From assembly GCA_964474355.1 (NCBI GenBank), contig CAYYSY010000172.1:16526-80525 (forward strand): a stretch of DNA of 64,000 nt, given 5' to 3'. Shown piece after piece: positions 8,159 to 59,244 of the stretch (the first letter of the stretch is position 1; every line of letters starts with the position of its first letter). The position numbers and the translations under genes were made by a program. The notes under the pieces were generated by a model that searched no databases, was not told the origin of the DNA, and was given only the letters and a program-made list of their open reading frames with translations. This stretch comes from an uncultured Spirochaetaceae bacterium (GTDB lineage Bacteria; Myxococcota_A; UBA9160; UBA4427).

Positions 8159-8746
8159 ATGAAGCTCTTCGTCGACAGGATCGAGGCTTCACCGACGTCG
8201 GAGCGGTTCGAGGCCGGCGGCGACTGGTGGTCGGACCGGTCCGGGGCGAGTGCCTCGGACTTCGAGATGGTCGAGCCGCCGGTGTTCGTGGTGAACGTGC
8301 ACCGGATGGGGCGCGATCTGTATCTCGACGGAACCTTCGAGGCTCGGGTCGAGGCGACATGCAGCCGATGCCTCAAGCGCTATCGTCAGCCGCTTCGCGA
8401 TGCCTGGCGGCTCGTGCTCGAGCCCGCCGAAGGCGCCGAGATGCCCGATCCGGAGAGCGCGGAGACGCTGGCCCAGGACGGAATCTGCCTGGGTGAAGAG
8501 CTGGAGGTGGGCTGGTATCGGGGCAAGGAGCTGAAGCTCGACCGCCTCTTCGACGAGGTGGTGGCGCTGGCTCTGCCGCTCGTCCCGCTGTGCCGAGAGG
8601 ATTGTCCGGGCCTTTGCCCGGTGTGTGGACGTGACCTGTCCACCGACGAGTGCGACTGCGAATCGACCTTGCCCGACTCGCCCTTCGCCGCCCTGGCGGC
8701 GCTGCGGACGAGCGGGCCCGAGACAGAGACCGACACAGAGAGCTGA
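8159..8746 (+). CDS. yceD: YceD/DUF177 family protein (large-subunit ribosomal accumulation protein)
   Basis: Lies directly upstream of rpmF. C-terminal CxxC...CxC cluster ([23 protein letters not shown]) typical of DUF177. Start taken at MKLFVDRI. Confidence 0.8.
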
Positions 8747-8809
8747 AGGCTCTCGAGACAACGAGCTGAAGGCTCTTGAACAACGAGCTGAGGGCTCTGA
8801 AGAGAGAAC
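8740..8809. repeat. three tandem units (23/22/25 bp) at the yceD stop / rpmF start
   Basis: gagctgaaggctctcgagacaac / gagctgaaggctcttgaacaac / gagctgagggctctgaagagagaac. Unit 1 contains the yceD TGA (8744-8746). The array ends 4 nt before the rpmF ATG. Confidence 0.9.
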
Positions 8810-8813
8810 CGAG

Positions 8814-8996
8814 ATGGCCGTACCGAAGCGAAAGACCTCGAAGGCGAAGCGCGACAAGCGCCGCAGTCACGATGGCCTGTCGAGCCCCGCTCGCAGCAAC
8901 TGCCCCCAGTGCGGCGCACCGAAGGTGCCCCACCGCATCTGTGGCAGCTGCGGCGAGTACAAGGGCCAGACCGTGATCGAGATCGACGAGGATTAG
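8814..8996 (+). CDS. rpmF: 50S ribosomal protein L32
   Basis: [19 protein letters not shown]... with CPQCG...CGSCG zinc ribbon, 60 aa. Confidence 0.95.
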
Positions 8997-9003
8997 TCGG
9001 CAC

Positions 9004-10362: not shown

Positions 10363-11619
10363 TTGCCGGATCGCGATCCGTCGCAGCGGGTCGTCGTCAC
10401 CGGCCTGGGTTGCGCGTCGCCGCTCGGACTCTCCGTCACCGAGACGTGGGACGCCGCGATCGCTGGCCGCTCTGGCGCCGCCACGATCCAGGCCTTCGAC
10501 CCCGAAGGCTATGCCTCCACCATCGCCGCCGAGGTGAAGGGCGACCTCGATCTCGGGGACGTCGAGCCGAAGGAGGCCCGGCGCATGGACCGGGTCGTCA
10601 AGCTCGCGTTGCACGCGACCCGCGAGGCGTTGATCGACTCGAAGCTCGAAGTGAGCGACGCCAATCGCGACCGGGTCGGCGTCGCCGTCGGCTCGGGCAT
10701 CGGCGGCCTCGAGACGCTCACCTCCAATCAGAACACGTTGATGGAGAAGGGCCCGCGCCGCGTCTCGCCGTTCACCATTCCGATGTCCATCGCGAACATG
10801 CCGAGTGGCCTGATCTCGCTCACGCACGGCCTGCGTGGACCCAACCTCTGCCACGTGAGCGCGTGCGCGACCGGTGCCCACGCGCTGGGCGAGTGCATGC
10901 ACTTGATCGCGCGCGGCCAGGCCGACGTCATGGTCGCCGGCGGCAGCGAAGCGCCGATCCAGCCGCTCGGCGTCGCGGGCTTCGCGGCGATGAAGGCGCT
11001 GACCACGCGCAACGACGAGCCCGAGCGGGCGAGCCGCCCCTTCGATCGCGGCCGCGACGGGTTCCTGATCGGCGAGGGCGCCACCGTCCTCGTGCTCGAG
11101 AGCCTCGCGCATGCCCGGGCGCGCGGGGCGCGCATCCATGCCGAGATCGTGGGATACGCGGCCACCGCCGACGCCCACCACATGGTAGCTCCCGATCCCG
11201 ACGGAGCCGGCGCGGCGCGCTGCATGCAGCTCGCCGTGGAGAGCGCCGGGCTCCCGCTCGAGTCCATCGACCACGTGAACGCGCACGCGACCAGCACGCC
11301 GGCGGGCGACCCCACCGAGGTGAAGGCGCTGCGGACCGTGTTCGGCGACCACGCCGACCGCATCGCCGTGTCTGCAACGAAGTCGATGACGGGCCATCTG
11401 CTGGGCGCCGCGGGCGCGCTCGAGGCGCTCTTCTGCATCAAGGCGCTCGAGACGGGGGTACTTCCGCCGACGATCAACCTCGAGGACGTCGACGACGGCT
11501 GCGCCCTCGACCACGTCGCGAACGTGGCGCGGACGCAGTCGATCGCCGTCGCGCTCTCCAACTCGTTCGGCTTCGGCGGCACCAACGCCGCGCTCGTCAT
11601 CACCCGGCCCGATCTCTGA
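10363..11619 (+). CDS. fabF: 3-oxoacyl-ACP synthase II
   Basis: RVVVTGLG..., active-site ACATG, and the HATSTPAGD / NSFGFGGTNA motifs. Proposed TTG start is 5 nt after the acpP stop, so the start is uncertain. Confidence 0.9.
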   Translation: MPDRDPSQRVVVTGLGCASPLGLSVTETWDAAIAGRSGAATIQAFDPEGYASTIAAEVKGDLDLGDVEPKEARRMDRVVKLALHATREALIDSKLEVSDANRDRVGVAVGSGIGGLETLTSNQNTLMEKGPRRVSPFTIPMSIANMPSGLISLTHGLRGPNLCHVSACATGAHALGECMHLIARGQADVMVAGGSEAPIQPLGVAGFAAMKALTTRNDEPERASRPFDRGRDGFLIGEGATVLVLESLAHARARGARIHAEIVGYAATADAHHMVAPDPDGAGAARCMQLAVESAGLPLESIDHVNAHATSTPAGDPTEVKALRTVFGDHADRIAVSATKSMTGHLLGAAGALEALFCIKALETGVLPPTINLEDVDDGCALDHVANVARTQSIAVALSNSFGFGGTNAALVITRPDL

Positions 11620-11752
11620 GCCCGGGCGCGCTGATGGTCACCCGGCCCGATCTCTGAGCCCGGGCCCCCCGATCTTCACTCGGCCCGATCTCCGAGCCCG
11701 GGCCCCCCGATCTTCACCCGGTCCGATCTCCGAGCCCGGGCGCGCTGGGCGC
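11601..11752. repeat. 4 x 38-bp tandem repeat starting inside the last fabF codons
   Basis: Units 11601-11638, 11639-11676, 11677-11714 and 11715-11752 (cacccggcccgatctcTGAgcccgggc...). Units 1-2 keep TGA; units 3-4 have CGA instead. Confidence 0.9.
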
Positions 11753-13219: not shown

Positions 13220-13720
13220 TTGCGCTGTCCGTACTGCGGCGACGACGGGAACCGGGTGATCGACAGCCGGGTGGCGAAGGGGCTGTCGGAGATCCGTCGC
13301 CGGCGCGAGTGCGAGGAGTGCGGGCGACGCTTCACGACACGCGAGCGTGTCGAAGAGACCCTCCCGAAGGTGATCAAGCGCGACGAGCGTCGCGAGGAGT
13401 ACGACCGCGCGAAGCTCGTCCACGGGCTCGAGAATGCGTGCGTCAAGCGACCGGTCTCGGCCGACGCCATCGAGCGACTCGTCGAGCGCGTCGAGCGGCG
13501 TCTGCAGGAGAGCGGCGCTGCCGAGGTGTCGACCCAGGAGATCGGGGAGCGGCTGCTCGAGGGGCTCGTCGCGATCGACACCGTCGCCGCGGTGCGTTTC
13601 GCGTCCGTGTTCCGGAACTTCGAGAGCACCGAGGACTACGCTGCGTTCTTCGAGCGCCTCGGCGACTCGGAGGGCCCGCGCCCGCCGCTGAGGGTGGCGG
13701 GTGACGAGGGCGGCGGGTGA
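13220..13720 (+). CDS. nrdR: transcriptional repressor NrdR
   Basis: (M)RCPYCGDDGNRVIDSR...RRRECEECGRRFTTRERVE zinc ribbon plus ATP-cone. TTG start. Confidence 0.95.
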   Translation: MRCPYCGDDGNRVIDSRVAKGLSEIRRRRECEECGRRFTTRERVEETLPKVIKRDERREEYDRAKLVHGLENACVKRPVSADAIERLVERVERRLQESGAAEVSTQEIGERLLEGLVAIDTVAAVRFASVFRNFESTEDYAAFFERLGDSEGPRPPLRVAGDEGGG

Positions 13721-13830
13721 GCGCTGCTCGCGACCGCGCCAAGCAAGGACAGCGGGTGAGCGCTGCTCGTAACCGCGCCAAGCGAGGACAGCGGGTGAGC
13801 GCGCGAAACGGGGACAGCGTGTGAGCGACG
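13713..13830. repeat. tandem copies of the nrdR-stop / ribD-start junction (2 x 39 bp plus 2 partial)
   Basis: gcggGTGAgcgctgctcg..ccgcgccaagc.aggaca at 13713-13751 and 13752-13790; truncated copy at 13791-13816. The final copy gcgtGTGAgcgac carries the ribD GTG (13821). Confidence 0.9.
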
Positions 13831-14981
13831 CGGCGCGACTGGAGGCGATGATGCGGCTCGCGCTGGCGAGCGGTCGTCGCGGCCTCGGCATCACCCATCC
13901 CAACCCGAGCGTCGGCGCCGTGGTCTTCCGCGGTGATCGCGTGCTCGGCCGCGGTCATACGCGCCCGCCCGGTGGCCCCCATGCCGAGGTCGTAGCCCTG
14001 CGCGCGGCCACCCGCCGTCACGGCGCCGCGGCCGTACGGGGTGCCTCGATGGCGGTGACCCTCGAGCCCTGCTGCTTCACCGGCCGGACACCGCCTTGCA
14101 CCGAAGCGATCCTCGATGCTGGCATCGCCCGGGTGGCGGTGGGGATGCGCGACCCGCATCCGCGTGTGAAGGGCCGCGGGAGCCAGCGCCTCGAAGCGGC
14201 GGGGGTGCGTGTGGTGCGCGACGTCCTCGAGGCCGAGTGCCGCGAGCTGCACCGCGGCTTCTCTTCGCTGTGCGAGCGTGGGCGCCCCTTCGTGACGCTG
14301 AAGCTCGCGACGAGCCTCGACGGTCGCATCGCCACGGCCAGCGGCGAGTCGCGCTGGATCACGGGCGCCGAGGCGCGTCGTTTCGTCCACCGGCTGCGCG
14401 CGCGCGTCGATGCTGTGATGGTCGGCTCGGGGACCGCGCTCGCCGACGACCCCGATCTCACGGCCCGTCACGGCGATCGCGTCCTGCGCCGGCCGGATCG
14501 GGTGCTGGTCGACTCGCGGCTCCGCGTGCCCGCGAGCGCGCGCCTTCACATGGGCCACGCCGGCGCGCGGACCCTGGTGCTGGCCTCTGCGCGAGCGCGC
14601 GGTCGCAAGGCGATCGAGGCATCGGGCTCCGAGCTCGTCGAGGTGCCCGGCCGGACCGGCGCACTCGATCTCGAGCGCGGGCTCGAGCTGCTGGGAGAGG
14701 CCGGTCTCACGACCGTGCTGGTCGAGGGCGGGGGCGGCCTCGCGGCCGCGTTGCTGCGGGCGGGGCTCGTCGACGAGCTGCACTGGATCATCGCGCCGAA
14801 GCTCCTGGGCGGCGACGCCGCGCCGGCGCTCGGTCCCCTCGAGCTCGCGAAGCTCTCCGATGCGCCCGAGCTCGAGGTGCTTCGGACAAGGCGCCTCGGA
14901 CGTGATACACACGTGCACGCGCGGCCAGTTGCAGTCGCAGTCGAGCGTGCCCGACGCCGGCCTTCGCGAGGCTCCCAGTGA
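13821..14981 (+). CDS. ribD: bifunctional riboflavin deaminase/reductase
   Basis: HAEVVAL and TLEPCCFTGRTPPC (CMP/dCMP deaminase zinc site), plus a C-terminal RibD reductase domain. GTG start. Confidence 0.9.
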   Translation: MSDAARLEAMMRLALASGRRGLGITHPNPSVGAVVFRGDRVLGRGHTRPPGGPHAEVVALRAATRRHGAAAVRGASMAVTLEPCCFTGRTPPCTEAILDAGIARVAVGMRDPHPRVKGRGSQRLEAAGVRVVRDVLEAECRELHRGFSSLCERGRPFVTLKLATSLDGRIATASGESRWITGAEARRFVHRLRARVDAVMVGSGTALADDPDLTARHGDRVLRRPDRVLVDSRLRVPASARLHMGHAGARTLVLASARARGRKAIEASGSELVEVPGRTGALDLERGLELLGEAGLTTVLVEGGGGLAAALLRAGLVDELHWIIAPKLLGGDAAPALGPLELAKLSDAPELEVLRTRRLGRDTHVHARPVAVAVERARRRPSRGSQ

Positions 14982-15487
14982 ACGTCTATCCCTCGAATCT
15001 CGACGCATCCGGGCTGCGCTTCGCGGTCGTGGTCTCGCGCTTCAACCACCCGATCAGCGCGGCGCTGCTGGAGGGCTGCGTGGAGACGCTCGAGTCGCGG
15101 GGCGCCTCGAGCGACGACGTCGACGTCGCCTGGGTGCCGGGCGCGTTCGAGATTCCGCAGGCGTGTCGCGTCCTCGCGGAGACGGGGCGTTACCACGCAC
15201 TCGTGACCCTGGGCTCGGTGATTCGCGGCGGCACTCCGCACTTCGACTACGTCTGCATCGGTGTCACCGACGGCGTGCGCGAGGTCATGCGCGACACCGG
15301 TGTACCGGTGGCCTTCGGCGTGCTGACCCTCGACGACGTCGATCAGGCTCTCGAGCGCACCGGTGGCTCGCACGGTCACAAGGGCGAGGAGGTCGCGCTC
15401 GCTGCCATCGAGATGGCCCGTCTCGTCCCCGAGCTTGCGCGGGGCGCGCGGGCGCACGTGCCGACCCGCGTGAAGGAGGTCGGCTGA
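14978..15487 (+). CDS. ribH: 6,7-dimethyl-8-ribityllumazine synthase
   Basis: RFAVVVSRFN..., WVPGAFEIP, GSVIRGGTPHFDYV. GTGA overlap with ribD. Confidence 0.9.
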   Translation: MNVYPSNLDASGLRFAVVVSRFNHPISAALLEGCVETLESRGASSDDVDVAWVPGAFEIPQACRVLAETGRYHALVTLGSVIRGGTPHFDYVCIGVTDGVREVMRDTGVPVAFGVLTLDDVDQALERTGGSHGHKGEEVALAAIEMARLVPELARGARAHVPTRVKEVG

Positions 15488-15547
15488 GCCGTGACCGCGA
15501 CCCTTAGAGCAGAGGTCCGCTGAGCGATGGCCGCCGCGAGCTCGAAG
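15476..15547. repeat. two imperfect 36-bp copies of the ribH-stop / nusB-start junction
   Basis: gaggtcggcTGAgccGTGaccgc (15476-) versus gaggtccgcTGAgcgATGgccgc (15512-). About 20 of the first 26 positions are identical by hand alignment. Confidence 0.75.
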
Positions 15548-16159
15548 TCTGCTTCGCGCCACAAGGCGCGTGAGCTCGCGTTGCAGGTGCTCTATGCCGT
15601 CGATCACTCCGAGGGCGCACGGGCGCGCAAGGCTTCGAGTGATGCGTCGGCGGATGTGGGGGCCTCCGATGCCGGCAGTGAGCCGGGGGCGCCCGCCGAG
15701 CCCGCCGAGCCCGCTGAGCCGAGCGTGCCCGAGCGCAGGCGGCGGCTCCCGGTGGAGCTCCCCGGGCGAGGCCCGAGGCCGAAGGCGCCGATGTGGGCAC
15801 CCTCCGAACCGGCCACTCCGGAGCAGACCTTCGACGCCATCGCCGAGCACTTCGAGATGGCCGCCGGCGCCCGCGCCTTCGCCCGCGAGCTGGCGCTCGA
15901 GACCCATGCGCGTGAGAAGGAGCTCGACGCGCTGATCGGCGCCCACGCCCGCAACTGGCGCGTCGACCGCATGGCCGTGGTCGATCGCAACATCCTGCGC
16001 CTGGCGACCTGGGAGCTGAGATTCAGCGACACGCCGACCGCCGTCGTGCTCGACGAGGCGGTGAACCTCGCCCGCCGCTTCGGCGACGACCCTTCACCGG
16101 GCTTCGTGAACGGCATCCTCGACGCCATCGCCCAGGGTGTGCGACCGGCGCCGGCGTGA
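15527..16159 (+). CDS. nusB: transcription antitermination factor NusB with a ~70-aa low-complexity insertion
   Basis: SRHKARELALQVLYAVD ... DRMAVVDRNILRLATWEL ... VVLDEAVNLARRFG. 210 aa, against roughly 140 aa typical for NusB. Confidence 0.85.
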   Translation: MAAASSKSASRHKARELALQVLYAVDHSEGARARKASSDASADVGASDAGSEPGAPAEPAEPAEPSVPERRRRLPVELPGRGPRPKAPMWAPSEPATPEQTFDAIAEHFEMAAGARAFARELALETHAREKELDALIGAHARNWRVDRMAVVDRNILRLATWELRFSDTPTAVVLDEAVNLARRFGDDPSPGFVNGILDAIAQGVRPAPA

Positions 16160-16304
16160 GCACACACGCCGGTTTCGTGAGGAGCGCCGTCGCCCCCGCT
16201 CCCACGTTCTTCGGGACGATTGCCATCGACGCTGCGCCCACGCATTTGGTGACGAACGTCCTCGACGTCCCCGACCGGGGCGTGCGACCATCGCCGGTGT
16301 GAGC
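16103..16304. repeat. diverged duplicate of the nusB 3' end, offset 143 bp
   Basis: 16103-16161 versus 16246-16304: 44 of 59 nt identical by hand alignment. FVNGILDAIAQGVRPAPA* versus LVTNVLDVPDRGVRPSPV*. Weaker similarity continues further upstream. Confidence 0.8.
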
Positions 16305-16925
16305 GCACGGCTCTCGATCGAAATCGACTCGCGTCCGTTCGAGCGCGTGGACGCAGACGTCGCCGTTGCAGGCCTCTTCGAGGACGACCGGCCGCTGCGA
16401 GGTGGTGCGGCGCGCGCCGATTGGCGCCTCTGTGGGCTGCTCTCCCGCCTGATCGTCGACGAGCGCATCTCGGGCGCACCGGGGGATGCCGTGCTCGTGC
16501 CCTCGGACTCGAGGCTGCGCGCGCCGCGGGTCCTGGTCCTCGGGCTCGGACCGCGCGGCAAGCGCTCGCTCGCCCAGGTGCAGGATCTCGTACGGGATGC
16601 GGCCGACCGTGTGATCGGGCTGGGGCTCACGAAGATGGCCCTCGGGCCGATGGGCTTCGCCGGCGACGACTGGCCGCGCCACGCCGACGCGGTGGTCGGC
16701 GCCGGGCTCGAGGCCGTGAGCGCGGCCGACCGTCCGCTCGAGCTCAGCCTCGTGGTTCCGGGTGCCGCCGAGGCGCGCGCCCGCGCGAGCTTCGGCGCCG
16801 TGATCGACGCCCTCGGTCGTCCGTCGATCGAGCTCGTCCGCCGGGACGACCGCAGGGCCGCCGATGGCCCCGCGCGTCGCCGCAAGACCCCCCAGGGGTC
16901 GCCGCCGCTCCATCGATCCCCCTAG
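16299..16925 (+). CDS. hypothetical protein with peptidase-M17-N-terminal-like (macro-like) domain
   Basis: DADVAVAGLFEDD...RVLVLGLGPRGK pattern resembles the leucyl-aminopeptidase N-domain; no catalytic domain is present. The GTG start at 16299 was chosen from the junction structure and is uncertain. Confidence 0.55.
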   Translation: MSARLSIEIDSRPFERVDADVAVAGLFEDDRPLRGGAARADWRLCGLLSRLIVDERISGAPGDAVLVPSDSRLRAPRVLVLGLGPRGKRSLAQVQDLVRDAADRVIGLGLTKMALGPMGFAGDDWPRHADAVVGAGLEAVSAADRPLELSLVVPGAAEARARASFGAVIDALGRPSIELVRRDDRRAADGPARRRKTPQGSPPLHRSP

Positions 16926-21961: not shown

Positions 21962-22470
21962 GCGAGTCGACTGACGTCGGAGGTGATTGGGAGGATCTCG
22001 CCCGGACCGCCTCGGTGAGGCACGGCGGAGAGGACGACGGCGGGGCGTTGATGCTGCGCGAGCTGCTCTCGTTCGAGCTCGCCGGGTCGCCTTACGCGAT
22101 TCCGGTGGAACGCGTCCGCGAGATCGTGCGGGTGCGCGAGCTGACGCACGTGCCGCGCGTGCCCGATTGGGTGCGTGGCATCGTCACCCTGCGCGGTGAG
22201 GTGGTGCAGGTGATCGACCTGCGGATGCGACTCGGTCTTCGCGCCGACGATACGAACCGGCGCAGTCGGATCATCGTGCTCCATGGCGACGACGATCGCG
22301 TCACCGGCGTGCTCGTGGACTCGGTGCGCGAGGTGCTGCGCGTCGAGGAAGAATCGTTTTCACCGTCGATGGACTCGGAGTTGGGCGCCGTCGCGGAGCT
22401 CTGTCTCCGCGACGAGGAGTTCGTCTCGGTCATCGACGTCGACAGGGTATTGGACCTCCGTGCCGACTGA
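21958..22470 (+). CDS. cheW: CheW coupling protein 1
   Basis: LLSFELAGSPYAIPVERVREIV...VRGIVTLRGEVVQVIDLR. GTGA overlap with cheA. Confidence 0.9.
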   Translation: MSESTDVGGDWEDLARTASVRHGGEDDGGALMLRELLSFELAGSPYAIPVERVREIVRVRELTHVPRVPDWVRGIVTLRGEVVQVIDLRMRLGLRADDTNRRSRIIVLHGDDDRVTGVLVDSVREVLRVEEESFSPSMDSELGAVAELCLRDEEFVSVIDVDRVLDLRAD

Positions 22471-39091: not shown

Positions 39092-40244
<1,153 letters not shown>

Positions 40245-48195: not shown

Positions 48196-48264
48196 GCGCA
48201 TGGCGCCATGTCGACCGCGTCCGCCATACGCCGCGCCAAGCCGAAGCGAGGGGTCGTCCGCTGA
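48168..48264. repeat. 69-bp-period in-frame duplication of the lpxA 3' end including the stop
   Basis: ggggtcgtccgcTGA at 48181-48195 and again at 48250-48264. The flanks are also similar (gaagagcgaacgc versus caagccgaagcga). Confidence 0.85.
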
Positions 48265-48370
48265 CGGCATCGAGCCACGCGCGAAGGAGGGGCGGCAGGG
48301 CGCGTCACCGAGCGGAGGCGGCCGCCCCGGCACCCTGTTAATCTCGCCCGCGGGCGGATCGGGGGGAGAA

Positions 48371-49222: not shown

Positions 49223-49260
49223 GGAGCGCACGGGCGGGGGGCATCGGCGTGCAAGGGCGC

Positions 49261-49336
49261 ATGGGCGAGGGCCGTGCCGACGTGAAGGACCGTATTCATG
49301 GCGGCGAGGGCCGGGCCGTCGTGAAGGACCGCATTC
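49261..49336. repeat. two copies (37 and 39 bp) of the oxidoreductase start region
   Basis: atgggcgagggccgtgccgacGTGAaggaccgtattc / atggcggcgagggccgggccgtcGTGAaggaccgcattc, 34 of 37 identical. Both GTGs are in frame, 39 nt apart. Confidence 0.9.
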
Positions 49337-50283
49337 GTGTCGGCGTGATCGGCGTGGGCTACATGGGCCGGCTGCATGCCGAGAAGCTCGCCGCGCTCGC
49401 GCTCGACGACGAGGGGCTCGAGTTCGTCGGCGTCGCGGACGTCCGCCCCGAGCGCGCGCGCGGTGTCGCGAACCGGCTCGAGACGTCGGCGTGGCCCGAC
49501 CATCGCCCGGTGTTCGAGCAGGCGGACGCGGTCGTGGTGGCCGTGCCGACGGTCAGCCACTTCGACATCGTGCGCGACGCGCTCCATGCCGGCGTCGACG
49601 TGCTGGTCGAGAAGCCCATCGCCGCGACCCTCGACGAGGCAGAGCAGCTGCTCGCGCTCGCGCGTGCCGGCGAGCGCATCCTGCAGGTCGGCCATCTCGA
49701 GTGGTTCAACGGCGCAATGAGCGTGATCCGCGAGCACATCCGCGCGCCGCGCTTCATCGAGGTGCACCGGCTCGGGCCCTTTCCCGATCGGGCGACCGAC
49801 ATCGACGTGGTGCGCGACGTCATGATCCACGACCTCGACATCCTGCAGCAGACCCTCGGCGAGGCGCCGGCCGAGATCGACGCAGTGGGCGTGCCGATCC
49901 TCTCGCCCGAGGTCGACATCGCGAACGCGCGGCTGCGCTTCCCCGGCGGCTGCGTCGCGAACCTGACCGCGTCGCGTGTCACGAGCACGCCGACGCGCAA
50001 GATCCGCTTCTTCCAGCCCGATGCCTACTTCTCGGTCGACTTCCTCGAGCAGGCGGCGGTCGCGATCCGTCGTGAGCCGGGCGAGGCCGGGGCCCCGGGC
50101 GCGATGAAGCTCGAGAAGCTCGACGTCGATCGGGGCGATGCGCTCGTCGCGCAGCTGCGGGACTTCATCGGCGCCGTGCGCACCCGTCAGCGCCCGGAGG
50201 TCGACGGAGTCGATGGCCTCGATGCACTGCGCACGGCGGGGCGCGTGATCGAGGCGATGGGGCCCGTGGGCGTGCTCGACTGA
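49321..50283 (+). CDS. Gfo/Idh/MocA-family NAD(P)-dependent oxidoreductase
   Basis: (V)KDRIRVGVIGVGYMGRLHAEK Rossmann N-terminus, later EKPIA. Alternative in-frame starts at GTG 49282 and ATG 49261 lie in the duplicated copy. Confidence 0.8.
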   Translation: MKDRIRVGVIGVGYMGRLHAEKLAALALDDEGLEFVGVADVRPERARGVANRLETSAWPDHRPVFEQADAVVVAVPTVSHFDIVRDALHAGVDVLVEKPIAATLDEAEQLLALARAGERILQVGHLEWFNGAMSVIREHIRAPRFIEVHRLGPFPDRATDIDVVRDVMIHDLDILQQTLGEAPAEIDAVGVPILSPEVDIANARLRFPGGCVANLTASRVTSTPTRKIRFFQPDAYFSVDFLEQAAVAIRREPGEAGAPGAMKLEKLDVDRGDALVAQLRDFIGAVRTRQRPEVDGVDGLDALRTAGRVIEAMGPVGVLD

Positions 50284-50313
50284 GACGGGTCGGCCGCTCT
50301 CCACCGCACGTGG

Positions 50314-50365
50314 CCCGTAGAGAGAGCCCGTAGAGAAAGCCCGTAGAGAGAGTCCGTAGAGAGAT
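50314..50365. repeat. 4 x 13-bp tandem repeat between the oxidoreductase gene and lpxB
   Basis: cccgTAGagagag / cccgTAGagaaag / cccgTAGagagag / tccgTAGagagat. The TAGs at 50318, 50331, 50344 and 50357 cover all three + frames. Confidence 0.95.
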
Positions 50366-51599: not shown

Positions 51600-54140
51600 G
51601 TGCGCTGGATCGGCCATGGCCTCATCGCTTTCGCGACACTGCTGCTCGCTCCGATCGCCCTGGTCGCGGCGCTCGCGCGTCCGACCTGGCGAGCCGGGCT
51701 GCGCGAGCGGCTGCTCGCGCCACGGCGGCGCGCGGACCGGCCGATCTGGATCCACGCGGCGAGCGTCGGCGAGGCGGCGGCGGCCGACGCGCTGATCGAC
51801 GGACTGGGGCCGAAGGCGCCCCCGCTCTTCCTCACGGCACAGACGATGACCGGACGCGCTCGGCTCTCTGCTCGCCACCCCGAGCACTCCTGCCGGCTCG
51901 TCCCCTTCGATCACCCCTGGCTCACGGGCCGCGCGCTCGCGCGCGTGCGTCCACGGGCGCTGGTGCTGGTCGAGACCGAGGTGTGGCCGGCGCTCGTCGC
52001 GGCCGCCCATCGTCACGGGGTACCGGTGGTCGTCGTCTCCGGGCGGATATCCGAGCGCGGGTATCGGGCACGGCACGAGCTCGCGCCGCTCTTTCACGGC
52101 ACGTTCTCGAGGCTGGCGGCGGTCGGGGCGCGCACGCGCGAGGACGCCGACCGATTCGTCGCGCTGGGCACGCCCGAGACGCGGGTGCGCGTCACGGGCG
52201 ACCTCAAGTGGGTGAAGCCGCCCGAGCGAGCGCCGGTCGCGGACGAGATCATGCGTTGGATCTCGCGCCACCCGACGGTCGTGCTGGGCAGCACCCACCC
52301 CGACGAGACCGGTGAGCTCGTCGCGGCCATCGAGGTGGTGCGCGCGCGCGGCCGCGACGTGCAGTGGCTATGGGCGCCTCGGCATCCGGGCGGTGCGGAG
52401 GCGCTGCTTCGCCGGCTCGATCGCGCGGGCGTGCGCGCCGTCCTGCGCTCTCGGCTCGACGCCGAAGCGCGCGAGAGCGTCGACGTGCTCGTGCTCGACA
52501 CCCTCGGCGAGCTGCGCGCCATCTGGCCGCAGGGAATGCTGGCCGTGGTCGGCGGCACCTTCGGCGCCACCGGTGGCCACGATCTGCTCGAGCCCGTCCA
52601 CGCAGGACGCCCGGTGCTCTTCGGGCCGAATACGTCGGGCGTCGCCGCGATGGCGCGCGCGCTGGTCGACGCCGGCGCGGCGATCCAGGTGGGCGACGGC
52701 GCAGCGCTCGGTGGTGAGATCGCGCGTCTGCTCGATGCGGCGCCTGAGCGCGCCGATCGCGTGTCGCGGGGCACCGCGCTCCTCGAGGCCGGTCGCGCGG
52801 CCCTCGACGCGCACGTGAAGCTCGTCCGCGACGCCGCGGCCGGGCGGCTGCCGGTGGCGCCCGAGGCCGAGCGGCTCGCGCTCGCTTCGACCGAGGCGCC
52901 CCGTGGCCTGTACTCGCGCACGGGCCCCGCCGCGCTTGCGCCCGTGCGCGCCGTGCTCGTGCTCGCGTCGCAGCTCTACGCCTGGGCTGCCCGGCTCGAC
53001 CGCCGCACCGGGCGTCTGGGCACGCGCCGCACGATGCGGCTCCCCTGCGCCGTCGTGTCGGTGGGCGGCTGGCTCGCCGGCGGCGCGGCGAAGACCCCCG
53101 TCACGCTGTGGCTGGCCCGGGCGCTCCGCGACCGGGGCCATCGCGTGGTGGTCGTCACCCGGGGCCACGGCGTCCGCCTCGGTCGCCGGCGCGTCGAGAT
53201 CGCGTCCCACGGTGCGGGGCCCTGTGCGCCGGCCGAGCAGGTCGGCGACGAGGCGCTCGTCATCGCTCGCCACGCGGAGGGCGTGCCGGTGCTCGTGGCG
53301 CGCGACCGCTACCGGGCGGGGCTCTGCGCGGTGGCCGAGTTCGACTGCGAGGTGCTGCTGCTCGACGACGGCTTTCAGCACTTCGCGCTGCACCGCGATC
53401 TCGACCTCGTCTGCCTCGACGCCGCAATCGGCCTCGGCAACGGACGCGTCCTGCCGGCGGGCCCGCTGCGCGAGTCGCCGCGTGCGTGGCAGCGTGCGGA
53501 CGCTCTCGTCGTCACCGGCGGACCGCTCGACGACACCGATGTCGAAGCGATCGAGTCGCACGCGCCGGGGCTTCGCCGATTCGCGGGCGAGCGTGGCGTG
53601 CGCGGCTGGCGGGGGCAGAGGACGGGCGAGGCGCTGGCGCCGGACGGGCTGGCGGGGCAACGCGTGGGGCTGCTCGCGGCGCTCGCCGATCCTTCGGGCT
53701 TTCGCGCGCTCGCCGAGCGCTGCGGCGTCGAGGTGGGCGCGGTGCGCCTGGCCCCCGATCATCACGCGTGGCGGCGCGAGGAGATCGCCTCGCTCGGTCG
53801 CCGCCGCTGCACGATCTGGATCACGACCGAGAAGGACGCCGTGAAGATCGACCCCGCATGGCTCGGCCCCGGCGTCGCGCTCTTCGTGCTCGAGATGGAC
53901 TGGGAGCCCGCCGCGCTGCCCTCGCTCACGCGCTTCGTCGAGCGCCGCTGCGGGCTGGAGCGCCGCGGCCAGGTGGAGCGCTGCGGCGAGGTGGAGCGCC
54001 GCGGCCAGGTGGAGCGCCGCGGCCAGGTGGAGCGCCGCGGCCAGGGGTCGAAGACCCGGACGGCGCCCGCCGCCTCGGATCAGCGAGCCCCGAGCGCGCC
54101 GGCCAACGACTCGCTCCAGCGGGCGGTCGGCTCGCAATAG
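51600..54140 (+). CDS. apparent fusion: Kdo transferase (WaaA/KdtA) + tetraacyldisaccharide 4'-kinase (LpxK)
   Basis: N-terminal half: IWIHAASVGEAAAADALI..., GGTF...GGHDLLEP (WaaA). C-terminal half: VVSVGGWLAGGAAKTPVTLWLARALRDRGHRVVVVTRGHG (LpxK P-loop), LLDDGFQH. There is no stop codon between the halves. GTG start with a GAGAGGAGAG RBS. Confidence 0.8.
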   Translation: MRWIGHGLIAFATLLLAPIALVAALARPTWRAGLRERLLAPRRRADRPIWIHAASVGEAAAADALIDGLGPKAPPLFLTAQTMTGRARLSARHPEHSCRLVPFDHPWLTGRALARVRPRALVLVETEVWPALVAAAHRHGVPVVVVSGRISERGYRARHELAPLFHGTFSRLAAVGARTREDADRFVALGTPETRVRVTGDLKWVKPPERAPVADEIMRWISRHPTVVLGSTHPDETGELVAAIEVVRARGRDVQWLWAPRHPGGAEALLRRLDRAGVRAVLRSRLDAEARESVDVLVLDTLGELRAIWPQGMLAVVGGTFGATGGHDLLEPVHAGRPVLFGPNTSGVAAMARALVDAGAAIQVGDGAALGGEIARLLDAAPERADRVSRGTALLEAGRAALDAHVKLVRDAAAGRLPVAPEAERLALASTEAPRGLYSRTGPAALAPVRAVLVLASQLYAWAARLDRRTGRLGTRRTMRLPCAVVSVGGWLAGGAAKTPVTLWLARALRDRGHRVVVVTRGHGVRLGRRRVEIASHGAGPCAPAEQVGDEALVIARHAEGVPVLVARDRYRAGLCAVAEFDCEVLLLDDGFQHFALHRDLDLVCLDAAIGLGNGRVLPAGPLRESPRAWQRADALVVTGGPLDDTDVEAIESHAPGLRRFAGERGVRGWRGQRTGEALAPDGLAGQRVGLLAALADPSGFRALAERCGVEVGAVRLAPDHHAWRREEIASLGRRRCTIWITTEKDAVKIDPAWLGPGVALFVLEMDWEPAALPSLTRFVERRCGLERRGQVERCGEVERRGQVERRGQVERRGQGSKTRTAPAASDQRAPSAPANDSLQRAVGSQ
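53955..54044. repeat. 5 x 18-bp in-frame tandem repeat in the C-terminal tail of the WaaA-LpxK ORF
   Basis: ctggagcgccgcggccag, gtggagcgctgcggcgag, then gtggagcgccgcggccag x3. Peptide LERRGQ VERCGE (VERRGQ)x3. Confidence 0.95.
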
Positions 54141-54937
54141 GCGTCGACGAGCACCTTCCAGCCCGATTCGAGGGCCGGGCGCGCTTCGGGGCGACGCTCG
54201 ATCGATCGCCGCAGCCGAGTGAGCTCTCGGCGCCGTCGCGATGGCGCGGCCGGCGTCCCGGCGTGGCCCCCCTGCAGGTCGATGACCCTGACCGACATGT
54301 CCGTGGGATCGTGCAGCAGATTCGTCACCGCGAGATCGGCGTGACCGCCGCCGGCATCGTGGAACGCGCGAATCGTCTGACCGAAGCGCCGGCAGAGATC
54401 GCTGACCTCGCCGCTCACGCGCATGCCGCGGTCGCGCTCGAGCGCGTGGGCGAGCGCGCTGGCGCCGTCGAGCGCGTGCTGCACGAAGACCGTCCCGACG
54501 ATGGCCCGCCAGCCGAGGGCGTCGCGCAGGCCGGCGGCGACGACGGGCTCGAGCACCGGTGCACCGCGCCGGTGCAGCTCGGCCGTGACCTCGATCTCGT
54601 GGGCGACCCGGGCGAAGCGCGGCACGCGGCCGGCGAAGAGCGGGCCGAGGGCGCCTCCCTTGAGCGCGCGCTTCACGAACACCGGACCCCGCTCGGTCTC
54701 GAGGATGCACGTGGCGGCGCGTCCCGCGTTGCGCGTTCGATCGGGCACGAGCCCGTCCGTCAGGGCGCCGAGCCGCGCGGCATCGGTGAGGCCCGCCGCG
54801 CGGAGCGCCTGCTCGTAGGTCGCCGCGACGAGCAGGCGTACGCGTCCCTCGCGCACGACGACGAAGGAGGGCGCTGCCTCGGGGTCGTCTGCGGGCTCGG
54901 CCGGAGCGGGGAGCGAGGCGGTCCGCGGGTCTTCCAC
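54080..54937 (-). CDS. lipopolysaccharide kinase (Kdo/WaaP) family protein, KdkA-like
   Basis: VFVKRALKGG..., catalytic-loop-like GGGHADLAVTNLLHDP, ...RVIDLQG. GTG start. Convergent, overlapping the WaaA-LpxK tail by 61 nt. Confidence 0.7.
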   Translation of the reverse strand: MEDPRTASLPAPAEPADDPEAAPSFVVVREGRVRLLVAATYEQALRAAGLTDAARLGALTDGLVPDRTRNAGRAATCILETERGPVFVKRALKGGALGPLFAGRVPRFARVAHEIEVTAELHRRGAPVLEPVVAAGLRDALGWRAIVGTVFVQHALDGASALAHALERDRGMRVSGEVSDLCRRFGQTIRAFHDAGGGHADLAVTNLLHDPTDMSVRVIDLQGGHAGTPAAPSRRRRELTRLRRSIERRPEARPALESGWKVLVDAYCEPTARWSESLAGALGAR

Positions 54938-56173: not shown

Positions 56174-57240
56174 GCGCGCTGGCCGACGCCGCTCGCATCG
56201 TCGTTCGTGCGCCGAACTGGCTCGGTGATCTCGTGATGGCGACGCCCGGGCTGCGCGCGCTCCGCAAGCACGTGCCCGACGCGCACGTGACCGTCCAGCT
56301 GCCCGCGGCGCTCGCGCCGCTGCTCGAGGGCTCGCCCCACGTCGACGCCATCGTCGCGATGGACGGACGGCCGCAGGGCGTGCGTGCGCTGTGGCGCGAG
56401 GCGCGCAGGCTGCGCGCCGCGGGCCCCTTCGACTACGGGGTGTGCCTGCCCGAGAGCCACTCGTCGGCCTTGATCCTGCGCGCGGCCGGGGTGCGGCGCG
56501 TCGGTGGCTTCGCGCGCGGCGGGCGGGGCTGGCTCCTGCACGACGCGATCGCGGCGCCGGCCGAGTGGGGACGCCGCCGCATGGTCGCGCGCGAGGTCTT
56601 CGTGCTGACCCTGCTCGAGCGGCTGGGCTGCCCCGGCGACGGCACGGCGCTCGAGCTGCACGCGACCGACGCTGCGGAGCGCACCGCGCAGCGGCTGCTC
56701 GATGGCCTCGGTCACGGGCGCCGGATCGTCGGGCTCGCCCCCGGTGCCTCGTTCGGTCCCTCGAAGCAATGGCCCGCGGCGTCCTTCGCGGAGCTCGCGG
56801 ATCGCTTCGCCGAGGCCGGCGACGACGTGGTGCTCGTGGGCTCGCCCGGCGAGCGTGATCTGGTCTCGCGGATCGGTGAGCGGATGCGGCACGAGGCGCG
56901 CTCGCTCGCCGGCGAGACGGGTCTCGGCGTGCTGCCCGCCGTCCTGCGGAGGCTCTCGCTGCTCGTCTGCAACGATGCCGGCGCGCGGCACGTCGCGGTG
57001 GCCTGCGGCGTGCCCACGACCGTCTTCATGGGGCCCACCGCGCTCGAGAAGACCGGCGAGAATCTCACGCAGGTGGCCGTGCTGACCCACGACGTGCCCT
57101 GCCGGCCCTGCTACCAACGCCACTGCCCCGTCGGCCACGAGTGCATGACGGGGATCACGCCCGGTCGCGCCTTCGACGCCGCGACGCGACTGCGCGCGGC
57201 GTGCGAGCAGGCGGCCACGACCCGACGGGAGTGCATGTGA
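56170..57240 (+). CDS. glycosyltransferase family 9 (LPS heptosyltransferase, WaaF-like)
   Basis: IVVRAPNWLGDLVMATPGLRAL, APGASFGPSKQWP, CNDAGARHVAVACGVPT. GTGA overlap with the previous gene. Confidence 0.8.
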   Translation: MSALADAARIVVRAPNWLGDLVMATPGLRALRKHVPDAHVTVQLPAALAPLLEGSPHVDAIVAMDGRPQGVRALWREARRLRAAGPFDYGVCLPESHSSALILRAAGVRRVGGFARGGRGWLLHDAIAAPAEWGRRRMVAREVFVLTLLERLGCPGDGTALELHATDAAERTAQRLLDGLGHGRRIVGLAPGASFGPSKQWPAASFAELADRFAEAGDDVVLVGSPGERDLVSRIGERMRHEARSLAGETGLGVLPAVLRRLSLLVCNDAGARHVAVACGVPTTVFMGPTALEKTGENLTQVAVLTHDVPCRPCYQRHCPVGHECMTGITPGRAFDAATRLRAACEQAATTRRECM

Positions 57241-58283
57241 GCCCGGTTCGCAAACAGCTCGACGCGACCTTGCAGCGCTTCGAGCACCTCGAGGTGCTCG
57301 TCGTGGGCGACGTCATGCTCGACGAGTACCTGCTCGGCGAGGTCGATCGCGTGAGCCCGGAGGCGCCCGTCCCCATCGTCGCCGTAGAGCGCGAGGTACG
57401 CGCGCTCGGGGGCGCCGGCAACGTCGTACGCAACCTCGTGGCGCTCGGGGCGAGCGCGCGGCTCTGCAGCGTGGTCGGCGACGACGACGAGGGGCGGCGC
57501 ATCGTCGACCTGCTGAAGGAGCTCGGCGTCGACACGTCGGGCATCGTCGTCGACGATGCGCGGCGCACTACGCGCAAGACGCGCATCGTCGCGCGTGACC
57601 AGCAGATGATCCGGGCCGATCGCGAGGACGTGGAGCCGCTCGGCGACGACGCGCGCGACGCGCTCGAAGCGCGCGTGCGCGCTTCGCTGCGCGGCACCGA
57701 CGGTGCCGCCCTCGTCGACTACGGCAAGGGCGTGCTCGCCCCCGATGCTGCGCGCCGCCTCGTCGCGATGTGCGGCGAGGCCGGCGTCGATGTCGCCGTC
57801 GATCCGAAGGGGCATCTCGACGCCTACCGGGGGGTGCGGCTCGTGAAGCCCAATGCAGCCGAGGCGGCGGCGCTCCTGGGCGAGCCCGAGGTGTTGCCGG
57901 CGGCGTCCGGGCAGGGCGCGCACGCGTGGGCCAGGCGGCTGGGCGAGCGCCTGCCGGGCGCCGACGCCGCGCTCACGCTCGGCGGCGAGGGCATGGTCGT
58001 GCTCGAGGCCGGGTCGAAGGGAGCGCCCGAGCTGGTGCCCACGGCCTCGCTGGACGTCTACGATGTGCAGGGCGCCGGGGACACGAGCCTCGCCGCGCTC
58101 TGGCTCTCGCGGCTGGCCGGGGCGTCGCTCGTCGACGCGGCGCTGGTCGCGAATGCCGCGTCGGGCGTGGCCGTGTCGAAGGTGGGCACGGCGACGGCGA
58201 GCCGCGACGAGGTGCGCGAGCGGCTGGCCCGGGTGCTCGCGGCGGGCGCGCGCGAAGACGACGACGACGGAGGATCGCGATGA
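57237..58283 (+). CDS. D-beta-D-heptose 7-phosphate kinase (RfaE/HldE domain I type; no adenylyltransferase domain)
   Basis: VLVVGDVMLDEYLLGEVDRVSPEAPVPIV...GGAGNVVRNL...DVQGAGDT (PfkB-type). 348 aa. Confidence 0.85.
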   Translation: MSPVRKQLDATLQRFEHLEVLVVGDVMLDEYLLGEVDRVSPEAPVPIVAVEREVRALGGAGNVVRNLVALGASARLCSVVGDDDEGRRIVDLLKELGVDTSGIVVDDARRTTRKTRIVARDQQMIRADREDVEPLGDDARDALEARVRASLRGTDGAALVDYGKGVLAPDAARRLVAMCGEAGVDVAVDPKGHLDAYRGVRLVKPNAAEAAALLGEPEVLPAASGQGAHAWARRLGERLPGADAALTLGGEGMVVLEAGSKGAPELVPTASLDVYDVQGAGDTSLAALWLSRLAGASLVDAALVANAASGVAVSKVGTATASRDEVRERLARVLAAGAREDDDDGGSR

Positions 58284-59173
58284 TTCGCAGCATGACCGGC
58301 TTCGGCCGCGCCACCTTCGAGGTGGGACAGACGGTGTTCGAGGTCGAGATGCGGAGCGTGAACCATCGCCATCTCGACGCGCGGGTGAAGCTGCCCCGCG
58401 CGCTCTCCGATCGCGACGCAGAGGTGAAGGCGGCGATCCAGGCGCGGCTCGGCCGGGGCAAGGTCGACTGCAGCGTCTCGGTCTCGGGCCAGGCGGCCGC
58501 GCTCCAGGGCCGGGTGCAGGTCGATGCCGACGTGGCCGGTCAGTACGTCGACGCGGCGCACGCGCTCGCGGACGCCCACCGGCTGACCGGCGCGCTCGAC
58601 GTGTCGACCCTGCTCGGCATGCCGGGCGTGGTGCGCGTGACCGAGGTCGAGTGGGCCGACGACGACCTCGCCGCCGGGCTCGGGCGGGCGGTGGCCGAGG
58701 CGCTCGCCGCGCTCGAAGCGATGCGGGCCGCAGAGGGAGCGTCGTTGCAGGCGGAGCTCGAAGGGCGGCTCGACCGCGTGCTCGAGCTCGTCGGACAGTT
58801 CGAGGCGCGCTCGGGGCTCGTGGTCGAGGCGGCGAAGGAGCGCCTCAAGAAGCGCGCCGAGCAGCTGCGCCAGGAGACGGGCAGCTTCGACGACGCGCGA
58901 CTGCACCAGGAGATCGTCATCGCGGCCGACCGCCTCGACATCACCGAGGAGCTGGTGCGGCTGCGCAGTCACGTCGATCAGTTTCGCGCGATCCTCGCCG
59001 AGGGCGACGCCGGAAAGCCGGTGGGCCGGCGCCTCGACTTCCTGCTGCAGGAGATGGGGCGCGAGGCGAACACGGTGGGCTCGAAGGCGAACGACGCGCC
59101 GCTCGCCCACGACGTCGTCGAGCTGAAGGCGGAGCTCGAGCGGCTCCGCGAGCAGGTGCAGAACGTTGAGTAG
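58280..59173 (+). CDS. yicC: YicC-family stress-induced protein
   Basis: MIRSMTGFGRA...EMRSVNHRHLD...GREANTVGSKAND...[18 protein letters not shown]. Confidence 0.9.
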   Translation: MIRSMTGFGRATFEVGQTVFEVEMRSVNHRHLDARVKLPRALSDRDAEVKAAIQARLGRGKVDCSVSVSGQAAALQGRVQVDADVAGQYVDAAHALADAHRLTGALDVSTLLGMPGVVRVTEVEWADDDLAAGLGRAVAEALAALEAMRAAEGASLQAELEGRLDRVLELVGQFEARSGLVVEAAKERLKKRAEQLRQETGSFDDARLHQEIVIAADRLDITEELVRLRSHVDQFRAILAEGDAGKPVGRRLDFLLQEMGREANTVGSKANDAPLAHDVVELKAELERLREQVQNVE

Positions 59174-59244
59174 GGCCTGTCTCGGTAGAAGCGTGGTGGA
59201 TCTCGCCGGCCGGCTCACTCCGCGAGCAGGTGCAGAACGTTGAG
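59144..59244. repeat. 27-bp direct repeat of the yicC 3' end, 74-bp period
   Basis: ctccgcgagcaggtgcagaacgttgag at 59144-59170 (followed by TAG) and identically at 59218-59244 (followed by CAG). Confidence 0.95.

Follow-up and report, generated by a model that had tools for sequence, protein, structure and literature searches.

Tandem duplication at gene junctions in a 64-kb region of an uncultured Myxococcota genome

A 64-kb stretch of the genome of an uncultured Myxococcota bacterium from sediment (64,000 nucleotides (nt) of contig CAYYSY010000172.1, hereafter the window) carries head-to-tail repeats, with periods of 11 to 143 nt, at or close to the ends of its genes. The repeated units are recognisable as the ends of the flanking genes, and the gene ends next to them have homologous counterparts in relatives. 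In those relatives the junctions are stop/start overlaps or spacers of 0–6 nt and, therefore, the single-copy state is ancestral. The pattern is probably produced by a high rate of slippage-type tandem duplication together with purifying selection. It is unusual for bacteria and is of a kind already known, the locally derived variable-number tandem repeat (VNTR).

Results and discussion

The window has a GC content of 70% and is about 92% coding. Nearly all of its genes are on the + strand, and the genes within operons abut or overlap by 1–11 nt. A first-pass annotation, made from the sequence alone, had described recurrent tandem duplication at 13 loci. The gene names it used were confirmed by Pfam for yceD, rpmF, nrdR, ribD, ribH, nusB, two cheW genes, phoH and ybeY, for prfB, an FtsX/MacB-type permease (lolE-like), an ATP-binding cassette (ABC) ATPase (lolD-like) and bamA, and for lpxA, lpxI, a GFO/IDH/MocA oxidoreductase, lpxB, a kdtA–lpxK fusion, yicC and remA. 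Tandem Repeats Finder (TRF), a repeat search and diagonal scans found a head-to-tail repeat at every one of the 13 loci, and a fourteenth array, absent from that list, was found at the end of prfB. The arrays are as follows.

8735..8809 (repeat 8740–8798), + strand: yceD/rpmF array, three 22–25 nt units (22 nt x 2.6) with TGA in each; the yceD stop is the first TGA of the array (8744–8746) and the rpmF ATG is at 8814
11597..11741 (repeat 11600–11741), + strand: fabF-end array at the end of an operon, 38 nt x 3.7; the first unit consists of the last six fabF codons and the TGA at 11617–11619
13690..13832, + strand: nrdR/ribD array, a 16-nt unit x 2 and then units of 39, 39 and 26 nt, with GGGTGAGCG (GTGA stop/start overlap) in each; nrdR stop at 13718, ribD GTG at 13821
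15467..15530, + strand: ribH/nusB duplication, period 36–38 nt, x 2; ribH stop 15485–15487, nusB ATG at 15527, the AGAGG Shine–Dalgarno-like motif before nusB being copied from the ribH tail
16102..16308, + strand: nusB/pepA duplication, period 143 nt (16116–16165 against 16259–16308); nusB stop 16157–16159, start of the pepA-like gene at the GTG at 16299
22456..22581 (repeat 22456–22566), + strand: cheW1/cheW2 array, 37 nt x 3 plus a diverged original; cheW1 stop 22468–22470, cheW2 GTG at 22571
38186..38258, + strand: phoH C-terminal tail, in-frame 21 nt x 3 (ESRQRAD); the phoH stop (38311–38313) is about 60 nt past the end of the array and the ybeY ATG is at 38315
40227..40271 (repeat 40233–40271), + strand: prfB-end array, 11 nt x 3.5, (T/A)AG(A/C)GCCGGTG; the prfB stop TAG (40242–40244) is in the first unit
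42372..42446, + strand: lolD N-terminal array, in-frame 18 nt x 4, ASSG-type peptide; it begins 3 nt past the lolE stop (42367–42369), the ATGAGTGA overlap itself being intact
48178..48277, + strand: lpxA-end duplication, period 69 nt, with 31-nt cores at 48178–48208 and 48247–48277; stop 48193–48195
49219..49345 (repeat 49264–49345), + strand: lpxI/oxidoreductase, a GTGA overlap at 49219–49222 and then two in-frame 39-nt units, each with GTGAAGGACCG, at 49282 and 49321
50313..50364, + strand: oxidoreductase/lpxB spacer array, 13 nt x 4, GCCCGTAGAGAGA, every unit with a TAG; the stop is 30 nt upstream of the array, which ends 7 nt before the lpxB ATG (50372)
53937..54062, + strand: kdtA–lpxK C-terminal tail, in-frame 18 nt x 5.9 (VERRGQ), derived from the native ...FVERRCGL end
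59144..59252, + strand: yicC/remA duplication, period 74 nt (59144–59178 against 59218–59252); yicC stop TAG 59171–59173, true remA start at the TTG at 59240

The arrays hold between 2 and 5.9 copies of GC-rich units, with 84–97% matches between copies. The first-pass annotation had every array beginning in the final codons of a gene and including its stop codon. This holds for nine arrays (yceD/rpmF, fabF, nrdR/ribD, ribH/nusB, nusB/pepA, cheW1/cheW2, prfB, lpxA and yicC/remA) and fails for the lolD and oxidoreductase N-terminal arrays, the 13-nt oxidoreductase/lpxB spacer array and the phoH and lpxK C-terminal tails, the last two lying in frame 60–95 nt upstream of their respective stops. 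The longest period, 143 nt, belongs to nusB/pepA and not to yicC/remA, where it is 74 nt. At lpxI/oxidoreductase the native start of the oxidoreductase is likely to be the MKDRIRVGVIG at 49321.

The ancestral state was established by comparison with syntenic loci, which are given here the labels L001 and upwards. The closest genome in a species-representative collection was the chromosome OZ252299.1 (L001), a Myxococcota metagenome-assembled genome (MAG) whose proteins are 64–93% identical and which is fully syntenic with the window from 40 to 62 kb. L002–L006 are other syntenic Myxococcota loci, about 50% identical. Scanning metagenomes with RibD yielded a single conspecific contig, L078 (97–98% nucleotide identity), and about 25 syntenic family-level relatives among L079–L106 (56–72% protein identity). 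An exact-protein look-up with AcpP, made for relatives of the 8–16 kb region, gave one 1-kb contig only, 85% identical and without an informative junction. Orthologous junctions were compared at 10 loci in about 30 syntenic Myxococcota relatives.

In the roughly 25 family-level relatives, nrdR/ribD (ATGA or TTGA), ribH/nusB (GTGA, ATGA or TTGA) and nusB/pepA (GTGA or ATGA) are mostly 4-nt overlaps, whereas the window has 100, 39 and about 139 nt, respectively. The yceD/rpmF junction is −1 to +6 nt in family-level relatives and 67 nt in the window. In the lpx region, L004 and L006 both show ATGA at oxidoreductase/lpxB, and lpxI/oxidoreductase is a GTGA overlap in L006 and a TTGA overlap in L005. 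The lpxA/lpxI junction is single-copy in L001, and in L006 the lpxI start (ATG TCG ACG) lies 2 nt past the lpxA stop. The prfB end and the lpxK tail (FVEVRCGLAPRAAN...) are likewise single-copy in L001, and the lolD array is missing from L001 and L005, where lolD begins directly at the overlap. The tight junctions of the window, ribD/ribH and rpmF/plsX, are equally tight in the relatives, so the comparison is not biased by annotation. The first-pass annotation had asked whether the single-copy overlap is ancestral, and these comparisons show that it is.

At yicC/remA, L004 and L006 have ...GTTGAGTAG..., in which the remA TTG overlaps the yicC TAG; the overlap TTGAGTAG is present once in L001, L004 and L006, and in the window the whole junction is present twice, 74 nt apart. 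In L001 the single-copy overlap is followed by a Lys/Ala-rich N-terminal extension of RemA. This extension is an apparent feature of the clade: it is about 32 residues long and rich in Lys, Ala and Arg (window 59240–59336, L001 about 18738–18830), and it starts at the TTG overlapping the yicC stop, while the RemA proteins of the distant L004 and L006 begin directly at ...LLNIGYG.

About 15 of the roughly 50 co-directional junctions in the window are still ATGA, GTGA or TGATG overlaps, in keeping with the earlier description of undisturbed junctions as short start/stop overlaps. Among the window junctions that were ancestrally tight, about 35–40% have been expanded.

An assembly or sequencing artefact might be suspected on general grounds, tandem repeats being well known for causing errors in assembly, but nothing specific to the locus suggests one. 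Contigs from at least six independent assemblies, found by exact-protein look-ups (JGI 3300025883, 3300025895 and 3300004113; ENA ERZ27295545 and ERZ27295567; Logan SRR5277143), match the arrays of the window at 99.9–100% identity. Seven arrays were reproduced in this way: yceD/rpmF, ribH/nusB, nusB/pepA, cheW, the phoH tail, oxidoreductase/lpxB and lpxB/kdtA. The cheW array is identical to that of the window in L170 and L171, the phoH tail in L166 and L167, and the oxidoreductase/lpxB array in L168 and L169; in L165, from an independent assembly, ribH/nusB is the same but for one substitution and the nusB/pepA stretch is 99.9% identical. Several of the independent assemblies were made with k = 141, which exceeds the length of the arrays. 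Together with the divergence between copies within arrays (84–97% identity), the independent assemblies rule out an assembly artefact, and we regard the chance of one as negligible.

Slightly diverged strains gave evidence of variation. In L163 and L164 (98.4% identical) there is one yceD/rpmF unit where the window has three, and the junction is exactly 45 nt shorter. In L078 the nrdR/ribD junction is shorter by 65 nt (39 + 26). Five other arrays are invariant in contigs 99.9–100% identical to the window. These whole-unit differences indicate VNTR-like behaviour on the time-scale of about 2% divergence. Some copies are also decaying: the stop has been lost from fabF copies 3 and 4 (TCCGAG in place of the TGA) and from yicC copy 2, and the ATG has been lost from lpxA copy 2.

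Independent events are seen in the nearest relative. L001 lacks the arrays of the window but has its own 21-nt x 3.3 array at oxidoreductase/lpxB, made of the end of the oxidoreductase gene plus TAG, and its own 18-nt repeat in the prfB/lolE spacer, further along. Among the family-level relatives, ribD/ribH is expanded in L096 (2371–2452, 82 nt) and L093 (3167–3228, 62 nt) against a 4-nt overlap elsewhere; the L096 spacer holds a 15-nt TGA-containing tandem repeat, TTGGCGACTGAAAA(A/T), and is an independent case of the same process.

The position of the arrays was then compared with chance by 20,000 shuffles of array positions within the window, arrays with a TRF score of at least 90 being classed as strong. 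All nine strong arrays lie within 150 nt of a stop codon (3.0 expected, p < 5e-5), and seven of the nine lie within 50 nt (1.5 expected), neither number being reached in any shuffle. Seven of 23 arrays span a stop, against 1.4 expected (p = 3e-4). Four of the nine strong arrays contain no stop codon at all, and these are all in-frame N- or C-terminal expansions. Where an array lies in coding sequence its period is divisible by 3 in 13 of 14 cases, the sole exception being weak, while the periods at junctions are 11, 13, 22, 26, 37, 38, 74 and 143 nt and also 36, 39 and 69 nt. Between the left edge of an array and the stop there are anywhere from 4 to about 55 nt, which implies that there is no fixed anchor.

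Other loci with a GC content of at least 0.62–0.64 were analysed with identical TRF settings and a codon-based gene caller; these controls are homologous high-GC regions rather than whole genomes, with gene calls based on codon statistics. The density of strong arrays is 1.41 per 10 kb for the window and, for 909 kb of controls (GC at least 0.62), 0.099 per 10 kb, about a 14-fold difference (Poisson P = 2.6e-8). All nine strong control arrays have periods divisible by 3, suggesting that they are ordinary protein repeats. Arrays that span a stop number six in about 765 kb of controls (0.08 per 10 kb) and five in the 64 kb of the window (0.78 per 10 kb, with three long-period ones uncounted), about 10 times the control density; the Poisson probability of at least five where 0.5 are expected is about 2e-4. 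There is one such array in the 21 kb of L001, and none was found in the 11 family-level relatives long enough for analysis (107 kb). The excess is, therefore, specific to the lineage.

The explanation that we consider probable has two parts. The lineage would generate tandem duplications of 11–143 nt at an unusually high rate, likely by replication slippage or template switching, and the resulting arrays would then expand and contract as VNTRs do. Purifying selection would remove nearly all of the duplications that land inside genes. Those that survive would be of three sorts: duplications that straddle a gene boundary and leave both proteins unchanged, duplications inside a spacer made by an earlier duplication, and duplications that keep the frame within a tolerant N- or C-terminal tail.

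The first sort follows from simple geometry. If a segment from x in gene A to y in gene B is duplicated, A would remain intact on the left and B on the right. The left copy would supply the upstream gene's 3' end and stop codon and the right copy the downstream gene's Shine–Dalgarno sequence and start codon, the ribosome-binding site of B, embedded in the tail of A, travelling with the right copy. Between the copies the first codons of B would be fused to the last codons of A, giving a chimeric mini open reading frame (mini-ORF). In this way ancestral ATGA, GTGA and TTGA overlaps would become spacers of 35–140 nt built from fragments of the flanking genes. The first-pass annotation had already assigned the upstream stop to the left copy and the downstream start to the right one, and this is what is seen at the duplicated gene–gene junctions. 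It had also sorted the outcomes into chimeric mini-ORFs, spacers with stops in several frames and in-frame terminal peptide repeats; these three classes arise because of where the end-points of the duplication fall.

In a compact genome the number of safe positions at each tight junction is about equal to the unit length, so junctions should dominate among the survivors. The periods divisible by 3 in coding sequence, the strong arrays without stops, the variable edges, the decaying copies and the sporadic events elsewhere all point to survivorship and not to targeting.

The possibility that mutation itself is aimed at gene boundaries was considered. Slippage might occur at hairpins around stop codons, or transcription–translation events at termination sites might stall replication. 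The roughly 10-fold density of stop-spanning arrays and the confinement of all strong arrays to within 150 nt of a stop would fit such a mechanism, as would two units that contain inverted repeats: the cheW unit has a perfect 7-bp hairpin around its TGA (CCGCGTC GACT GACGCGG) and the fabF unit a CCCGG...CCGGG inverted repeat. The hairpin is, however, missing from the first (native) copy at cheW1, and no motif is common to the units of different loci. The left edges, as noted above, are variable, four strong arrays have no stop codon, and the multiples of 3 inside genes show selection sorting events that arise elsewhere too. A mechanism targeting gene boundaries, which had been floated in the first-pass annotation, is on this evidence improbable.

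The mini-ORFs bear on a different alternative. The expected chimera is seen, for example, at lpxA/lpxI, where MSTASAIRRAKPKRGVVR-stop (48208–48264) consists of the ancestral lpxI start MST and the lpxA tail RGVVR-stop. At ribH/nusB the mini-ORF VTATLRAEVR-stop (15491–15523) is an orphaned copy of the nusB start with a tail like that of ribH (...KEVG-stop), and it ends 4 nt before the nusB ATG. The fabF-end mini-ORF MVTRPDL-stop (11634–11657) repeats the fabF C-terminus (...ITRPDL-stop). The cheW array contains three, VPTDSDTGMATLRVD-stop (22460–22507), MATLRVD-stop (22521–22544; the cheW1 tail is ...DLRAD-stop) and MKRVRAD-stop (22558–22581), and the last of them overlaps the cheW2 GTG by 11 nt, recreating the ancestral 11-nt overlap.

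At three junctions a single ORF bridges the whole spacer, opening each time at an orphaned start codon that overlaps the stop of the upstream gene. The nrdR/ribD bridging ORF (13717–13824) runs from a GTG overlapping the nrdR stop to a TGA overlapping the ribD GTG. That at nusB/pepA (16156–16302) ends in a GTGA overlap with the GTG of the pepA-like gene, and that at yicC/remA (59166–59243), which opens with the orphaned TTG, closes with a TGA in a 4-nt overlap with the true remA TTG. At lpxI/oxidoreductase, and at nrdR/ribD in L078, in-frame duplication merely extends the downstream protein.

These observations raise the possibility of positive selection on spacing, in which the duplications were favoured because they uncouple or retune translation, or because a bridging mini-ORF passes ribosomes on, as proposed for the ORFs in MIRUs (mycobacterial interspersed repetitive units, see below). 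The NTGA overlaps at the ends of the three bridging ORFs, the position of the ribH/nusB mini-ORF close to the nusB start and the reproduction of the 11-nt overlap by the last cheW mini-ORF would all be accounted for in this way. So would the upstream GTG that the single 39-nt unit of L078 leaves in frame with ribD, and the high fraction of ancestrally tight junctions that have been expanded. The numbers, however, are small: the chance of an NTGA-ending phase is about 1/3 per locus, so that three out of three has a joint probability of just about 0.04, for a pattern spotted post hoc. When each junction duplication was shifted by 1 or 2 nt in a simulation of phase the results were mixed, some alternative phases ending harmlessly at incidental stops, and thus the argument from phase is no more than suggestive. 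Several arrays have no start codon (yceD/rpmF) or lie at the end of an operon (fabF), units are decaying at fabF and lpxA, and the affected genes have no common functional theme. Selection on spacing is, therefore, a possible but unlikely account of the arrays as a whole, and the 4-nt overlaps of the bridging ORFs may be read as a suggestive sign of it. If the mini-ORFs had a part in handing ribosomes on to the gene downstream, this would belong to the same hypothesis.

Four points weigh against duplication at a high rate followed by purifying selection as the explanation. The first is that stop-spanning arrays are about 10-fold more frequent than in the controls and weak in-frame coding arrays merely about 2-fold, when a pure increase in rate should raise both classes alike, unless the weak coding arrays are mostly background periodicity. 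The second is that the other non-coding DNA of the window, about 2 kb of promoter regions and long spacers, contains no arrays, although the numbers are too small for a judgement and these regions are perhaps constrained. The third is that no cause for the raised rate was found in the sequence covered, which came to 64 kb from this genome and 21 kb from L001. The last is the exact 4-nt overlap at the end of all three bridging ORFs, which hints at selection on translation beyond mere tolerance.

The closest architectural parallel is the mycobacterial MIRU-VNTR system (Supply et al. 1997; summaries in PMC12548453 and PMC3184786), in which tandem units of 40–100 nt lie between co-transcribed genes. 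Their copy number varies between strains, and a small ORF in the unit is joined at each end, by an overlap of −4 nt, to the stop or start next to it, an arrangement believed to maintain translational coupling (PMC12548453, PMC3184786) and to keep the downstream gene as little affected as possible (PMC12548453). All MIRUs belong to a single dispersed family of sequences, present at about 40–50 loci and thought to have been inserted (PMC12548453, PMC3184786). Exactly this ORF geometry is found in three of the present arrays (nrdR/ribD, nusB/pepA and yicC/remA) and not in the others. Unlike the MIRU case, the unit is a different one in each array and comes from the gene ends at that locus, and the sites hold duplicated local gene ends only and no foreign sequence.

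Insertion of a dispersed mobile family of this general kind, whether MIRU-like, a MITE (miniature inverted-repeat transposable element) or a repetitive extragenic palindromic (REP) sequence, would explain the location between co-transcribed genes, the variable copy number and the three ORFs with 4-nt overlaps (PMC12548453, PMC3184786). The units should then be related to one another. In an all-against-all comparison of 13 units the mean local alignment score was 13.0, against 12.1 for shuffled sequences, with equal maxima; the units of different loci are thus unrelated, and a MIRU- or MITE-type element was rejected on this ground. Each unit is instead homologous to the gene ends next to it in relatives, and no extra copies of any unit were found elsewhere in the window. 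No terminal inverted repeats or target-site duplications were evident in the sequences read, though no dedicated scan was made. There is no shared palindromic or terminal-inverted-repeat unit, as REP and MITE elements would have, the hairpins of two units not being common to the others. Across the window Rfam at gathering thresholds returned two tRNAs only and no family matching the arrays, in agreement with the first-pass annotation, which knew of no named element. A mobile family is accordingly very improbable, and the likeness to MIRUs is one of architectural convergence and not of membership. What was found (head-to-tail copies, locally derived units that are single-copy in relatives, and whole-unit differences between strains) is what defines a VNTR, or minisatellite.

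Tandem repeats in the archaeal extrachromosomal elements known as Borgs (PMC9879509) show a lineage-specific excess, rapid turnover and independent origin in close relatives; those inside ORFs have units that are all divisible by 3 and give terminal or disordered peptide repeats (PMC9879509). The lineage-specific excess, the arrays starting in gene ends and the rule of 3 within ORFs are shared with the window, as are the rapid turnover and the independent origin of arrays in close relatives. Borg units, however, are perfect and A-rich, whereas the units here are GC-rich, 84–97% identical and located in core housekeeping operons of a bacterial chromosome, and the turning of stop/start overlaps into spacers is not described for Borgs (PMC9879509). 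In marine Beggiatoaceae, TAACTGA heptamers form stop-carrying direct repeats just upstream of start codons, some overlapping the upstream stop (PMC4679880). That is one fixed heptamer, genome-wide and across phyla, suggesting a binding site, whereas the arrays of the window have units of 11–143 nt and no common motif.

The evolution of operon spacing has been described by a neutral model in which spacing evolves fast, with small changes at protein termini, and tight spacing arises through deletion bias (Price, Arkin and Alm 2006, 'The Life-Cycle of Operons', PMC1480536). Duplication is mentioned neither there nor in a 2026 preprint on short gene overlaps. The neutral model thus covers the deletion route, and the present locus shows the reverse, overlaps opened by tandem duplication. 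The same operation has reportedly been carried out by hand in the refactoring of genomes (decompression of phages T7 and phiX174, recoded E. coli), where an overlap is duplicated so that each gene gets a private copy of its end. The engineered change differs in being man-made and a single exact duplication, without arrays. In the literature covered, which is incomplete, no account was found of bacteria in which local tandem duplication has opened stop/start overlaps recurrently; for junction duplication in bacteria or Myxococcota only analogues were found (MIRUs, Borgs, TAACTGA repeats and the tandem duplication–random loss of mitochondria).

Other features of the window

Several weaker repeats were seen. 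A 25-nt TRF array at 55749–55799, inside the heptosyltransferase gene, had a low score and indels and was treated as chance GC-rich similarity, and a 7-nt purine-rich repeat at 51568–51594 in the lpxB/kdtA spacer was too weak to be counted. Two weak in-frame repeats, PAEPAEPAEP (9/18 nt) in the long N-terminal region of NusB (15679–15731) and an 18-nt x 4 repeat at 26397–26469 in the last quarter of the gene at 25686–26714, fit a general proneness to repeats. Part of the ribH-tail unit (15468–15485) has an 18-nt exact match at 24614–24631 inside a large che gene (23125–25644), which is probably due to chance.

The lpxA/lpxI spacer, which is otherwise diverged, contains an AT-rich 17-mer, CACCCTGTTAATCTCGC, that is exactly conserved between the window (48331–48347) and L001 (about 7995–8011). 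It lies about 25 nt upstream of the lpxI Shine–Dalgarno sequence and GTG and may be a regulatory or promoter element. Between fabF and glyA the window has a 309-nt spacer alone (11620–11928), half of which is the 38-nt array. The relatives L084 (about 6433–7018) and L091 (about 7673–8263) have an extra small gene at this position, the product of which begins MGDPIIIGSDHRG and looks RpiB-like.

The prfB gene, encoding release factor 2 (RF2), consists of a short upstream ORF (to 39193) and a main ORF, with the canonical CUU UGA C +1 programmed frameshift site at the join (39183–39204, CTTTGAC at 39188). The genes kdtA, for the 3-deoxy-D-manno-octulosonic acid (Kdo) transferase (Glycos_transf_N), and lpxK form one fused ORF (51600–54140), which aligns in a single piece in L001 and in two pieces, with the order kept, in more distant Myxococcota. 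Past its array this ORF runs to 54140 before it meets a stop, and its last 61 nt overlap, on the opposite strand, the 3' end of a convergent gene, which encodes a Kdo/WaaP-family lipopolysaccharide (LPS) kinase.

54080..54937, − strand: Kdo/WaaP-family LPS kinase gene, convergent with kdtA–lpxK
40369..42369: lolE-like FtsX/MacB permease of 666 amino acids, with about 260 residues before the MacB periplasmic domain that have no Pfam match

Conclusions

Operon spacing is usually ascribed to deletion bias pushing genes into overlap. The window shows the opposite route, with the ancestral state, intermediate alleles and population polymorphism of the reopened junctions all visible, and it is nature's equivalent of the refactoring that synthetic biologists carry out on overlapping genes. 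About a third of the tight junctions have been reopened in this one lineage. Intergenic DNA, mini-ORFs and terminal peptide repeats here originate from pre-existing coding sequence. In practical terms, the arrays will cause gene callers to misplace start sites and will yield spurious small ORFs, and they are ready-made VNTR markers for strain typing in metagenomes.

A testable prediction follows: if junction duplications are constrained by translational coupling, this should be visible in their periods modulo 3. A stronger proposal would be that the junctions undergo systematic, selectable remodelling, with bridging mini-ORFs selected for phase and forming a tunable ribosome relay of variable copy number, or that duplications are induced at sites of translation termination. 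We think this doubtful. If it were true, gene boundaries would be a dedicated hotspot of regulatory evolution in this lineage, beyond a safe harbour for neutral repeats.

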